Source: a virus
Lineage: Duplodnaviria > Heunggongvirae > Uroviricota > Caudoviricetes
DNA length: 3,471 nucleotides
IMG/VR virus record: IMGVR_UViG_2663763280_000007
Location: 1-3,471 of that record
Strand: one strand, 5' to 3'
The notes below the pieces were generated by a model. That model was not told the DNA's origin and made no database searches. It saw only the letters and a list, made by a program, of their open reading frames with translations. The position numbers and the translations under genes were made by a program. Below, piece by piece: positions 1 through 3,471 of the stretch; positions within the stretch are counted from its first letter, which is position 1; every line of letters starts with the position of its first letter.

Positions 1-324
1 GTGTTCGCACCGACCTGGCTTGGGTTATCGTTTTACGATAGCCGCACCACGTCGTTGTTGCATCCTGCTCGCCAGATCCAGCTTCCCAGCCTGCAACGCG
101 GTGAAGGTGAAGCGATGCTTACCGCCCTCACCCATCTTAGCCGTTCGCCGCTGGAGCAGAATATCTCCATTAGTCTGATTCAACTTAAATTGCAGGCCGG
201 GCGGAAGCTGATGCAGGCAGAGACCACCCGACTTAACACTGTGCTGGATTACATTGACGCGGTGACGGCAACAGATACCAGCACAGCGCCGGATGTCATC
301 TGGCCTGAACTGCCGGAGGCGTAG
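1..324 (+). CDS. Tail fiber assembly protein, alternative cassette copy; C-terminal 107 codons only, 5' end truncated by the window edge
   Basis: Open frame runs from the window start to a TAG stop at 322-324. Its C-terminus (LDYIDAVTATDTSTAPDVIWPELPEA) is paralogous to that of the minus-strand Tfa (LDYLDALELVDTSSVLDIEWPTPPAVQAR), sharing the pattern GR-L ... LDY-DA ... DTS ... D--WP--P. Convergent orientation against the other tfa gene fits the second cassette of an invertible fiber segment. The antisense ORF 25..333 has no comparable motif. Confidence 0.7.
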   Translation: MFAPTWLGLSFYDSRTTSLLHPARQIQLPSLQRGEGEAMLTALTHLSRSPLEQNISISLIQLKLQAGRKLMQAETTRLNTVLDYIDAVTATDTSTAPDVIWPELPEA

Positions 325-748
325 GCCATTCAATATCTAGCACACTGGAGGTATCAACCAGCTCCAGTGCGTCCAGGTAATCCAGCCACAAATTATATTG
401 CGCCAGTTCCTCGTCTTTCAGACGACCAATAGCGGCTTTACCGGGCCATTGTTTACTGTTCATGTATTCGTTGGCCTGGTTAATTAGTAGCTGTCTTTCT
501 GATTCAGTAATTTCAATAAGTTCTTCATGCGTGGGTGGAGGAATATCTGCCCACGCAGGCAGCCCATCTTCTCCGGCAATACGGATTTTTCCTTGTGGCG
601 GTTCAGCCATAAACTCACTGATAATATTTTGATTTACTTCCTTAGCGTCTGATAAATCCCATCCCTCTGATTTATATTTATCAATCATATCCACAGGGAA
701 AAAAGCATTATGCCTTGCGCTATAAACATATTCATTCATATAAATCAC
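296..748 (-). CDS. Tail fiber assembly protein (Tfa chaperone), 150 aa as drawn
   Basis: Lies immediately downstream of the tail fiber gene on the same strand, with the fiber stop at 760-762. The C-terminal WP-x-x-P motif and size are typical of Tfa/Mu U-type chaperones. The codon at 746-748 is GTG, not ATG; an in-frame ATG at 737-739 is preceded by AGGGTG (SD-like, about 5 nt spacing) and may be the true start, giving 147 aa. Stop is TGA at 296-298. Confidence 0.8.
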   Translation of the reverse strand: MIYMNEYVYSARHNAFFPVDMIDKYKSEGWDLSDAKEVNQNIISEFMAEPPQGKIRIAGEDGLPAWADIPPPTHEELIEITESERQLLINQANEYMNSKQWPGKAAIGRLKDEELAQYNLWLDYLDALELVDTSSVLDIEWPTPPAVQAR

Positions 749-759
749 CCTGAATAAAA

Positions 760-1422
760 TTACTCACCAACAGCCCACCAACTGTAATTCATCGATACCG
801 TGTCGCTGGTTGATGACGTTCTGTAAGCAGAATTAAAGCCGGTTAACGTTGGGCCTTCTGCAGTCATCACGAACCCTCGCCCAGCGCCTAAAGGCGCACC
901 GCCATCACCAGAATGAGTAAGCATGGCGCAGTCCGCTTTTTTGGGGAAAGGGATGCTGAATGTAATTCTCATTGTTTGCGTCGATAATGTCGGCGTAACC
1001 GCACCACGACCATATTGCAGGATTTTCCCGTTGGGTAATTTCATCCATCCATCACCACTGGCAAAAGAGGCCATGTCCGGTATCTGATTTTCCCCTGTCC
1101 CCACATCCCGTTTTGCCGCTTCTCCCAAACCAAGGTTTTCGAGAGCCGTTTTCACCGTGCCATCCGATTTGATATCACCAAACGGATTCTTGCGGCTTAA
1201 CAGCAGAGCACGAAGCGCGGTAAGCAACTGGTCATGCCGCCCCTTCTCCAGGCTGGCACCGGAGGTCTCCACAACGCTGCAAAGCTCCTCCTGCAACATG
1301 TCAAAGTAGTCATCATCCAGATCGGTGGCAGGCGTACCAGTCTGGGGGTTACCACGGGTAAAACCGTTCTTACCCGCGCCGAACTTATCCTTCTGCGCGG
1401 TTTTCGTATCTATACGATGCAT
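760..1422 (-). CDS. Short side tail fiber protein, 220 aa: about 92-aa N-terminal constant anchor fused at an LENLGLGE junction to an about 120-aa receptor-binding tip
   Basis: ATG at 1420-1422 is preceded by GGAG about 6 nt upstream, lying inside the end of the upstream gene. Residues 93-101 (ALENLGLGE) are encoded by the crossover-like palindrome at 1120-1145. The downstream motif ([19 protein letters not shown] ... [13 protein letters not shown]) resembles the distal tip regions I recall from phage side tail fibers. Position between a gp48-like gene and a tfa gene matches the canonical order. Confidence 0.85.
1120..1145. other. Putative crossover site for a Din-family serine invertase (hix/gix/cix/pix-like), 26 bp
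   Basis: Sequence TTCTCCCAAACC-AA-GGTTTTCGAGAG: two 12-bp half-sites in inverted orientation around a central AA dinucleotide (left TTCTCCCAAACC, reverse complement of right CTCTCGAAAACC; 9 of 12 match). This closely resembles the hixL/gix sites as I recall them (TTCTTGAAAACCAAGGTTTTTGATAA-like). It sits in frame within the tail fiber gene at the conserved LENLGLGE junction. Confidence 0.75.
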
Positions 1423-1425
1423 GGA

Positions 1426-2010
1426 TTACTCCGGATATTTAAAAATTACGTAGGTATGCGACGGGCAGAGTTTGTTAAGCACACACTCGACAACGGTGTC
1501 GCCCCAGATACTCAGTGCGGAATCACAGGGATCGCCACATGTCATCCAGGTGGTGTTGGTGGCGGCTGGCATGTTGACCTGCCAGTAATACCGCCATTCC
1601 GGCGCATTCACCGCGTCAGTACAGGCCGATGAGCAGGTGAACGTGCTTTTGTCGTATCGCGTGATGGTGGCGTCTGGTCTGCCCAGGGCAGCAAGCTGTG
1701 CAAGGTAAAAATCCTCATTGATGCCGCCCGCCAGGTTAACCTTCGCATCCAGTCGTTGCTGACGCTGGCGAAGGGTCTGTGTCCCTGCGGGAATACATTC
1801 ATCCGGCAGGCCGCACAGACGCTCCCAGCGATTTATCAGTTCGGTGGTGGTGCGCGGATCCAGCTCCCGCATCAGGGCATCCGCACGCTGATGAACACGG
1901 GTTAATGACGGTGCCGCACCGGCAATCGCCGGATCGCTGGCTGACCACGCCGGACCGGGCGGCAACAGTGCCGATAACAGGCGGATGTAATCATCGTTTG
2001 TCACGTCCAT
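1426..2010 (-). CDS. ymfQ: Mu gp48-like / YmfQ-family (DUF2313) phage tail protein, 194 aa; probable baseplate component analogous to P2 gpI
   Basis: ATG at 2008-2010 overlaps the upstream J-like gene by 10 bp (J stop TGA at 2001-2003). The N-terminus [24 protein letters not shown] and the 194-aa length match what I recall of enterobacterial YmfQ-type proteins. Position between the J-like and tail fiber genes is as in Mu (gp47-gp48-S). Stop TAA at 1426-1428, 3 nt before the fiber ATG. Confidence 0.85.
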
Positions 2011-3059
2011 GAAATCGTCCCCAGTACCGCCAGTTCGTTTTTCGCAATGGAGATATTGTCCACCGGTGCAAGCAACTGATGGCTGTATTCCCCGTTCGCA
2101 CCGGAAATCGCTTCACTGATACGTGACACCTTCAGTTCTCCCTGCGGATAACCATCACGCAGCAGGAACGAACGCAACTCGGCGGTGATGGCAGCCCGTA
2201 TTTCCGGTGTGTCCGGCGTCACGCGGATATGAAAATCCACTTTATGCGCCACCGGCCTGAATACATACAAATCAGAGCCTGCCACCGGGGCCAGTGGCTC
2301 AATGTGTTGTCTTGCCGCCGTTTCCGTTGATTCTTCCGGAATGGGATTAATCAGGTCACTGCTGGCAATCATCACACCGACAGTCCCCGTTCCCATCCAG
2401 TGGCGGTATGTCCATGCACGGGTAATGCCGGGCACTTCTTTAGCCCAGACAACATAGTCCCCGTCAGCCCCGCCCTGAGGCGTCCAGTAATACCGCTCAA
2501 TGACGCGGGCGCGCCACGTTTCCAGCTCTTCAGTATCAAATCCACCTGTCAGAGTGTCTGCCACGCCGGAAGACGGCAGACCATTCACCGGCGTGACCAG
2601 GATTAATGCCGTACCGTCGTCAGCGTTACCGACCGCTCCTGCACTTGAGCAGGCGATCGGCACGCGCAGGACACCACCGGAGCTGGTTGCATCGGCAGTT
2701 GCCGTGTACTGAACCAGATCATCGCGCTGAATAACACTCCCGGCGGTCACCTTCAGGCCATCGCTGACACCTTCCCAGCGCATATACCCGCTGGCAGCCG
2801 TGGCCCCCTTGCGCGGACACCGTTTCATCGCAGCATGTCGCGCCAGCCAGGACTCATCGCACAGGTCAGGCAGCATGTTCATTGCCAGATAATCGATGTA
2901 ACCGTAAACCGTATGCAGCGCCGCCGCATACACCTTTGCCCGCACGTCTTCATCCATGCGCCGGAGCGTGTCGCTGACGTCCAGCCTGGCGAATAAATCG
3001 TTACGGAGCATACTGATATTTTCTGCCAGCGTCGGGCGCTGAAATTCACTGTCCGCCAT
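2001..3059 (-). CDS. Baseplate J-like protein (Mu gp47 / P2 gpJ family), 352 aa
   Basis: Long, GC-rich ORF with ATG at 3057-3059, overlapping the stop of the upstream gp46-like gene by 14 bp. Size and position (after the gp46-like gene, before the gp48-like gene) fit the baseplate wedge J family. Plus-strand ORFs 2400..2606 and 2500..2712 lie wholly inside it and are taken as antisense shadows. Confidence 0.85.
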
Positions 3060-3471
3060 GCGTTATCGCACTCCACAGATCATCAAAAGAAATCATTACC
3101 GGTCCGTCACGACGCCAGAGAGTGATACTGTTACCCAGTTCATTAATCCCGGTGCGGCGGATATCCAGATCAATACGGGACACCACACCGTCATCAATCA
3201 TCCATTGCAGGCATTCGCGGATATACCCCCTTACCGTCTGCACCAGCTGATTGGTCAGTTTGCCGCGCTGAAGCAGCCACAGCCGGGAGCCGTAACGGTC
3301 ATTCTGTACCGCAGGCCAGGTATCCCCCCACCATCCCATCGGGACGTCGGCATTGTCATCAGGCTCCGCCCGCCGCCAGGTGAACAGGGAAATCACCACG
3401 GCGCGGGTCAGCGGATCCAGCGGTGCGCTGGCGCAGGTGCGTTTACCGTTCACCGTCAGCCACAGTTCCAT
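3046..3471 (-). CDS. Mu gp46-like small baseplate protein (Phage_GP46 family; functional analogue of P2 gpW), 141 aa
   Basis: Contains GWWGD ... GSRLW-L motifs that I associate with the GP46 family, and 141 aa is typical for it. ATG at 3469-3471 is the last codon of the window, so the upstream context and RBS cannot be seen and a longer N-terminus cannot be excluded. Stop TGA at 3046-3048. Confidence 0.75.
   Translation of the reverse strand: MELWLTVNGKRTCASAPLDPLTRAVVISLFTWRRAEPDDNADVPMGWWGDTWPAVQNDRYGSRLWLLQRGKLTNQLVQTVRGYIRECLQWMIDDGVVSRIDLDIRRTGINELGNSITLWRRDGPVMISFDDLWSAITHGGQ

Follow-up and report, generated by a model that had tools for sequence, protein, structure and literature searches.

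The fibers of Mu, P2 and the R-pyocins are trimers that dock on a wedge protein via their N-termini, have tips folded by a Caudo_TAP chaperone and bind LPS sugars with a foot domain; an invertase switches tip and chaperone together and thereby changes host range. In Mu, cryo-EM places the N-terminus of the fiber protein gp49 (S) on a loop of gp48 (PMC11915804). Inversion of the P segment of the e14 prophage by PinE, PinQ and PinR has been demonstrated experimentally (PMC12529663). The e14 P segment with its fiber StfP and the short fiber of the SfV type are already annotated and partly characterised. Here we analyse a 3,471-nucleotide stretch of viral DNA (the window) whose gene at 760..1422 on the minus strand belongs with these systems. 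The reading that best accounts for our data, to which we assign a probability of about 0.85 as a whole, is that this gene encodes the sole tail fiber of an E. coli prophage or temperate myovirus of the e14/SfV type, one with a Mu-like baseplate, that the fiber consists of an anchor and a lectin-like foot, and that a Pin-type switch selects between two fibers.

The gene extends from an ATG at 1420-1422 to a stop codon at 760-762 and encodes 220 residues, and the two sequence motifs quoted in the initial annotation lie where it had put them, at residues 108-117 (1072-1101) and 126-138 (1009-1047). This is a genuine conserved gene and no chance open reading frame: among the database matches listed, more than 100 proteins from E. 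coli, E. albertii, E. marmotae and Shigella are exactly 220 residues long and 97-100% identical to it. The ORF list, Pfam, a family alignment and PHROG 1396 ("tail fiber protein", E 4.5e-91) agree on the gene; a search of NCBIfam returned no match for the fiber or for its neighbours Tfa and YmfQ. Judged by sequence, the protein is the orthologue of stfP/ycfK from E. coli K-12 e14 and of orf21 from phage SfV; the ortholog alignment took in StfP, SfV orf21 and the fibers of SKA5 and pro483.

The neighbouring genes form a tail module in the order gp46-gp47-gp48-fiber-Tfa, as in Mu, with the fiber gene directly downstream of the gp48 homologue and followed by its Caudo_TAP chaperone. On the minus strand, the window holds the homologue of Mu gp46 (baseplate wedge 1; 3046..3471; Pfam GP46, E 1.2e-32), the Baseplate J protein homologous to Mu gp47 (2001..3059; Pfam Baseplate_J, E 5.7e-53) and YmfQ, the homologue of Mu gp48 (baseplate wedge 3; 1426..2010; Pfam Phage_Mu_Gp48, E 7.6e-27; BLASTP against Mu gp48, E 4e-15). 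Past the fiber gene lies the cognate tail fiber assembly chaperone Tfa (296..739, minus strand; Caudo_TAP, E 2.6e-30; PHROG 188), which has 147 residues counted from an ATG at 739, the length given by the gene calls in the related loci L007-L011; the mechanically made ORF list starts it at a GTG at 748. Convergent with tfa, and overlapping it by 29 nt, are the C-terminal 107 codons of Tfa', a TfaE-like alternative chaperone (1..324, plus strand; Caudo_TAP, E 4.5e-10; annotated in L001, L005 and L007), which is part of the other half of an invertible segment. All but the first 165 bases of the window (166-3471) are 100% identical to the E. coli chromosome OZ040064.1 (L007), and in 130 complete E. 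coli genomes, many of them from O157:H7 strains, prophages match the same part with 97-98% identity. In both the window and L007 the tail module is uninterrupted from the tape-measure gene onward.

A longer fiber, for example one joined to an upstream exon by inversion or frameshifting, had been raised in the initial annotation as a finding that would overturn its view; we looked for one made through an upstream exon, a frameshift or read-through and rejected it as unsupported. Because the TAA of the gp48 homologue (1426-1428) sits three bases before the fiber ATG, as it also does in SfV and SKA5, there is no room for an upstream exon, and a GGAG lies at 1429-1432 upstream of that ATG. TAA is an efficient stop codon. 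The ymfQ and fiber genes happen to share a reading frame. According to gene calls or annotation, the fiber begins as a separate gene from the equivalent of the ATG at 1420-1422 in L001, SfV, SKA5, K-12 e14, L007-L011 and FRIK944.

The N-terminal constant part of the fiber (Sc; residues 1-96; 1134..1422, minus strand) has the marks of a baseplate anchor. A profile made from a 23-sequence family alignment (A2) and searched against the PDB matches residues 33-107 to residues 37-115 of Mu S (E 6e-13; entries 5yvq and 8ju3 and the Mu baseplate 9ki1), pairwise BLASTP against Mu S gives E 2e-8, and Foldseek places the N-terminal part on chain 9ki1_j of the Mu baseplate with a probability of 0.96 and 24% identity over 104 columns. 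These comparisons argue that residues 1 to about 105 are homologous to the N-terminal 115 or so residues of Mu S/gp49, and they make YmfQ the predicted docking partner of the anchor. The AlphaFold2 model is of a monomer and gives low confidence to the N-terminal 110 residues (pLDDT 37-70), with helices at 37-54 and 64-75, so the anchor fold and the trimer rest mainly on homology. Such low confidence is what would be expected when an intertwined trimer is modelled as a monomer. When 136 distinct N-termini were aligned, they were near-identical up to ALENLGLG and divergent beyond it.

That point of divergence coincides with a crossover site, a 26-bp imperfect dyad (TTCTCCCAAACC-AA-GGTTTTCGAGAG; 1120..1145) with its central AA at 1132-1133, whose minus strand codes for LENLGLGE (residues 94-101; 1120-1143). 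In the window there is a single copy of the 19-mer TTCTCCCAAACCAAGGTTT (1120-1138), against none expected by chance; L007 has two, in inverted orientation at 7285-7303(-) and 9169-9187(+), 1.9 kb apart. A Resolvase/HTH_7 serine invertase gene adjoins the second of these sites (L007 9250-9804), outside the window, and L001 likewise has the inverted pair and pinE. The site agrees at 15 of 16 positions with the published repeat of the e14 P segment, TTGGTTTGGGAGAAGG (PMC12529663). LENLGLGE is thus a true recombination boundary, as the initial annotation had proposed for this very string: NLGLGE is coded by the crossover site, which is paired in inverted orientation in L007 and L001. From the position of the site and the homology to the N-terminus of Mu S/gp49, an N-terminal region of about 96 residues (about 92 in that annotation) lies outside the invertible segment, as claimed. 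We take the site to be of the Gin/Cin/Pin/Hin class, an assignment that, like the choice of its central dinucleotide, draws on comparison with gix and hix sequences.

Both orientations of the segment can be found in nature. When inversion was simulated by cutting at the central dinucleotide of both sites, the result was an in-frame fiber of 256 residues in which LENLGLGE is followed by a tip with a Collar domain. Among complete E. coli genomes, 513 have the junction of the anchor with this Collar tip at a coverage of at least 80%, and 74 have that with the gp53-like tip. Among O157:H7 strains, FRIK944 has the segment flipped: the 256-residue fiber and tfaE are followed by tfa in inverted orientation, by a gp53-like tip lacking a promoter and by pinE. 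Other O157:H7 strains have the orientation of the window.

Beyond the junction, a linker or neck of about 15 residues (residues 102-117; 1072..1119, minus strand) leads from the anchor to the foot. It is semi-conserved in front of many different tips (alignments A1 and A2) and is modelled with intermediate confidence (pLDDT 70-79). The remainder of the protein (residues ~118-220; 763..1071, minus strand) is the putative receptor-binding tip, a Gp53-like_C foot domain, and the C-terminal tip of about 120 residues that had been proposed is borne out as one globular domain by Pfam, the PDB profile, the AlphaFold2 model and Foldseek. Pfam PF21882 (Gp53-like_C) matches residues 128-219 at 47.3 bits (E 3e-12), above the gathering cut-off of 24.9. 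Profile positions 116-221 match gp92, the short tail fiber of Pseudomonas phage P7-1 (9zd7, E 3e-12), gp53 of Acinetobacter phage AP22 (4mtm, E 1e-8) and the C-termini of the R1 and R2 pyocin fibers (6cxb, 6cl5, 6ct8, 6cl6); a search of the PDB with the single sequence gave weak matches only (E 1e-4 and 0.04), and significance needed the 23-sequence profile. Built on A2, the AlphaFold2 model averages a pLDDT of 72.7; residues 120-220 mostly score 80-95 and form a confident beta-sandwich. Comparison of the tip with known fiber tip domains, a check that had been suggested, was run with Foldseek and returned the R1 and R2 pyocin feet (6ct8, 6cl5, 6cxb, 6cl6) at E 2.5e-5 to 6e-5, with an rmsd of 2.3-5.6 Å over about 102 aligned residues, and AP22 gp53 (4mtm) at E 1e-3; further matches were H-type and discoidin-type lectins and the C-terminal domains of the LKA1 and phi297 tailspikes. 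Together with the P7-1 gp92 match of the profile, these data indicate that the tip is a single globular jellyroll beta-sandwich of the discoidin/H-type-lectin kind and of a receptor-binding type.

Salazar et al. found the same set of structures starting from the pyocin foot, and proposed the foot as an LPS-sugar-binding domain (PMC6363177). By analogy, an LPS or O-antigen sugar is the most likely ligand of the distal loops of the tip described here. RefSeq calls SfV orf21 a "short tail fiber protein", a name that refers to length and not to homology with T4 gp12: the gp12-like collar and receptor-binding domains are not found in the fiber, of which Gp53-like_C is the sole Pfam match, and the Collar domain belongs to the alternative tip outside the window. 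The receptor-binding part had been described as easy to delimit, and it can be given as residues ~102-220 together with its Tfa.

The fiber had been called unusually compact, an anchor fused to a tip without a long shaft. The absence of a shaft or repeat holds for this protein: Tandem Repeats Finder detected no tandem repeat in the window DNA, a repeat search inside the fiber gene gave short pairs only, at chance level, the protein read by eye has no Gly-X-Y run, and only the linker separates anchor from foot. The claim of unusual size stands in comparison with Mu S, which has 504 residues, but fails within the protein's own family. Lambda Stf, the other protein to which the initial annotation compared it, has about 774 residues. 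An exhaustive HMMER scan returned 3349 cluster representatives at E <=1e-3, and the best 150 of these range from 80 to 400 residues with a median of 221. StfP of K-12 e14 (209 residues), SfV orf21 (216) and the SKA5 fiber (215) have a near-identical anchor and diverge just past LGLGE, and there are shorter members of 170 and 191 residues in which the tip is fused after residue ~71-75. Among 140 anchor-bearing representatives, Pfam identifies the tip as Gp53-like_C in 63, Gly_rich_2 in 11 and Collar in seven, and most of the others have no Pfam tip match. The protein, with its conserved anchor of ~100 residues ending in ALENLGLG and a length inside the range of about 200-260 residues of the e14 StfP/SfV orf21 short fibers, falls among these. 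The compact anchor-tip form is therefore normal for the e14/SfV-type family and has already been catalogued. The isolated phages SfV, SfI, SfII, SfIV and SKA5 have orthologues of 215-216 residues at the same position, and the annotation of the 37-kb SfV genome contains no second fiber or tailspike gene; therefore a fiber of about 216 residues appears to be enough for infection.

How such a short fiber might work can be sketched from the better-studied systems. By analogy with them, we infer for this protein trimerization, docking on YmfQ, sugar binding, dependence on a chaperone and host-range switching. We envision that residues 1 to ~105 form a trimer docked on YmfQ, as the N-terminus of Mu S does on gp48, and that the short linker leads straight to one lectin-like foot, which would bind a sugar of the LPS or O-antigen. 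The downstream Tfa chaperone would fold the tip, and the serine invertase encoded just outside the window would flip a segment of about 1.9 kb, swapping the pair of tip and chaperone. In this way the phage could switch between fibers of 220 and 256 residues, both of them short, and so between two host ranges. The fiber might be perhaps 10-15 nm long; for scale, P7-1 gp92 has 499 residues and measures about 410 Å, and a trimer of the R1 foot with a partial shaft measures 66 x 37 Å (PMC6363177).

Three other readings were weighed, and none of them is favoured over that of a sole, switchable fiber. The locus could be mainly an invertase-switched anti-phage module, in which the tip products made by a prophage occupy receptors and block the adsorption of other phages. 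Inversion of the P segment in K-12 e14 creates StfE2, a protein with a gp53-like domain that lowers T2 adsorption, and in K-12 the orthologous locus belongs to a prophage that is defective, its reported link being to phage defence and not to virion function (PMC12529663), which counts against the sole-fiber reading. Here, however, the tail operon is complete and includes both the anchor and its matching gp48 partner, and the tip allele is unlike that of K-12 StfP (63% identity overall, divergent past residue ~104); moreover, the receptor-blocking mechanism of that study rests on docking models (PMC12529663). We consider a mainly defensive locus unlikely. Defence and virion roles may coexist and are not mutually exclusive.

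Alternatively, the protein could be a baseplate pin or a short fiber with an accessory role, with a longer main host-recognition fiber encoded elsewhere. Pakpunavirus P7-1 offers a precedent, since it has a short fiber with this type of foot tip (gp92) plus separate long fibers, and for SfI, electron micrographs were described as giving "indications of ... long tail fibers" (PMC3636060). This remark is ambiguous and was the sole relevant text when the SfI and SfIV papers were checked for fiber length by electron microscopy; it fits poorly with a 216-residue fiber and so also counts against the reading we prefer. An accessory role is at odds with the 37 kb of SfV, in which no other fiber or tailspike is annotated, with the location of the gene in the position of Mu S, directly past gp48, and with the combination of an invertible tip and paired chaperones, which in Mu, P1 and e14 is the hallmark of the element that sets host range. 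These points make an accessory fiber quite improbable. The third idea is that the short gene is what decay has left of a longer fiber of the Mu S type, shortened by deletion in a cryptic prophage that has ceased to make a working fiber. It could draw on the larger Mu protein (a constant part of 169 residues in a fiber of 504), on its two NL(G/D)-type motifs (residues ~105 and 168-174), between which recombination could delete a segment, on the defective state of K-12 e14 and on L011, where the fiber of the window stands beside a truncated gp48 and host genes, but it is very improbable given the same length and architecture in the plaque-forming or lysogenising phages SfV, SfI, SfII, SfIV and SKA5, the median of 221 residues among the best 150 representatives, the intact 220-residue frame in more than 100 listed sequences and the tail module, which in the window and L007 is unbroken from the tape-measure gene on.

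The locus raises no new biological question, since descriptions already exist of the gene family, of the inversion system and of the folds of both domains. Its interest lies rather in the junction between anchor and tip, a place where parts are swapped in nature, by the invertase as well as through horizontal exchange with P2-like phages. The family is a small and convenient scaffold on which to retarget phages or tailocins and with which to ask how short a fiber of a contractile tail can be. A bolder idea, which we regard as doubtful, is that the ~96-residue anchor and the crossover junction form a natural minimal plug-in scaffold, that a small tip some 15 residues from the baseplate is enough for infection and that tips expressed from a prophage also act as switchable receptor blockers. 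On the scaffold idea, the foot or dozens of other small tips would serve, and the phages would depend on surface glycans that lie no more than about 10 nm from the baseplate; were the scaffold and receptor-blocker roles both true, the locus would combine host range and defence in one compact dual-use module.

Among the closest known systems is e14. There StfP (YcfK, b1154, 209 residues) follows ymfQ, as the fiber gene does in the window, with a near-identical anchor up to LENLGLGE, and the P segment (tfaP, tfaE, stfE, pinE) shares the crossover repeat, the convergent tfa pair and the pinE-type invertase found here. The StfP tip is gp53-like too, but it is another allele, only 63% identical overall and divergent past residue ~104, and e14 of K-12 has lost most of its tail genes (jayE is a pseudogene), whereas the window and L007 keep the full module. 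The SfV orf21 group (SfI, SfII, SfIV, SKA5) has the same gene order, a fiber of similar length and 97% DNA identity with the window from gp46 through fiber codon ~117; the SfV orf21 tip differs from that of the window past GTGxNQIPDM. SfV lacks an invertase and a second tip and has a single tfa followed by gtr genes, whereas SKA5 has the invertase cassette.

Mu supplies the counterpart for the anchor and the switch, and the R-pyocins supply that for the foot. The N-terminal docking region of Mu S (gp49) and its partner gp48 are homologous to the N-terminal part of the fiber and to YmfQ, and crossover at the Mu G segment also falls on an NLGL motif (QNLGLQE at residues 168-174, with the annotated G boundary at residue ~169 of S), tip and chaperone flipping together. 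Mu S divides into 169 constant and 335 variable residues, the fiber described here into about 96 and 124, and BLASTP found no significant sequence match between the two tips. The fibers of the R-pyocins (PA0620 / PALES_06171) and AP22 gp53 have the same foot fold as the tip analysed here and are detectably homologous to it; in the pyocin fibers, of some 690-700 residues, a head and a shaft precede the foot, whereas here the foot lies only about 15 residues past the anchor.

A natural exchange at the junction involves the P2-like phage pro483. Its fiber (399 residues) has a tip 95% identical over residues 90-220 of the fiber described here and the same cassette of tfa, tfa', second tip and invertase, but in place of the ~96-residue anchor it carries an N-terminal part of about 270 residues of the P2 H type. 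Window positions 166-1144 are 96% identical to L003, and homology with pro483 stops at 1144, inside the crossover site. The tfa gene was thus, to judge from these alignments, transferred together with the tip into a P2-like phage, across the same boundary at which the invertase acts.

Horizontal exchange has left an imprint on the fiber gene at the junction between its anchor and its gp53-like tip. Homology breakpoints with related phages and prophages are clustered (window 1071-1144) around the invertase crossover site, which spans 1120-1145 and encodes LENLGLGE: identity to the Shigella phage SfV and the E. coli phage SKA5 stops at 1071/1072 (codon ~117), that to the K-12 prophage e14 at 1110, and that to the P2-like phage pro483 at 1144. 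The anchor/tip junction therefore serves horizontal exchange in addition to inversion. A second discontinuity lies in the middle of the alternative chaperone gene tfa', where window positions 1-165 are unmatched in the best complete E. coli genomes and alignments begin at 166. The related locus L011 covers window 1-1883 at 99%, including these first 165 bases. A mosaic breakpoint thus lies within the gene.

The anchor upstream of this junction (window 1105-1422, fiber residues 1-~105) has no covering model in Pfam or NCBIfam. Thousands of cluster representatives nevertheless share it, and a structure has been resolved for its homologue, the N-terminus of Mu gp49. The compact architecture is found on another anchor as well: the short fiber P0259 (215 aa) has a Mu-S-like N-terminus (MFHVDNSTGVPVMP...) in place of MHRIDT..., together with a gp53-like tip and the very 10-residue linker sequence of the 220-aa fiber, and therefore at least two anchor subtypes carry this design. 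Two relatives, P0254 (170 aa) and P0249 (191 aa), are more compact still, with the tip joined after anchor residue ~71-75 and the segment ending in NLGLGE left out. Among the anchor-bearing representatives that we aligned, one member matches Pfam Resolvase and HTH_7, which suggests an anchor-invertase fusion call generated either by deletion or by an artefact of gene calling; searching quickly for motifs did not reveal which member this is.

The surroundings of the module vary among relatives. In L011 (6551-8127), a 220-aa fiber identical to that of the window and its Tfa adjoin a truncated gp48 (148 aa), which is directly abutted by host genes whose products carry FAD-binding/monooxygenase, Radical_SAM/TRAM, PhoH and YbeY domains; the locus is a prophage remnant in which the fiber module is the sole part kept. 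L008 and L009 (8099-9988) hold a cassette variant that lacks the alternative tip and in which the second chaperone gene is followed by a PRiA4_ORF3 gene and a different Resolvase-family gene.

At the upstream boundary of the fiber gene (1420-1432), the TAA stop codon of ymfQ (1426-1428), the Mu gp48 homologue, is separated by one codon from the fiber ATG (1420-1422). The two genes share a reading frame, and thus read-through of the stop would yield a hypothetical gp48-fiber fusion; a separate fiber gene is called in every relative examined.

The chaperone genes tfa and tfa' are convergent and their 3' ends overlap by 29 nt (296-324). An 18-nt inverted repeat (243-260 / 369-386) occurs here (243-386) because both genes encode a conserved C-terminal (W/V)LDY(L/I)DA motif. 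In K-12, tfaP and tfaE show the same kind of overlap.
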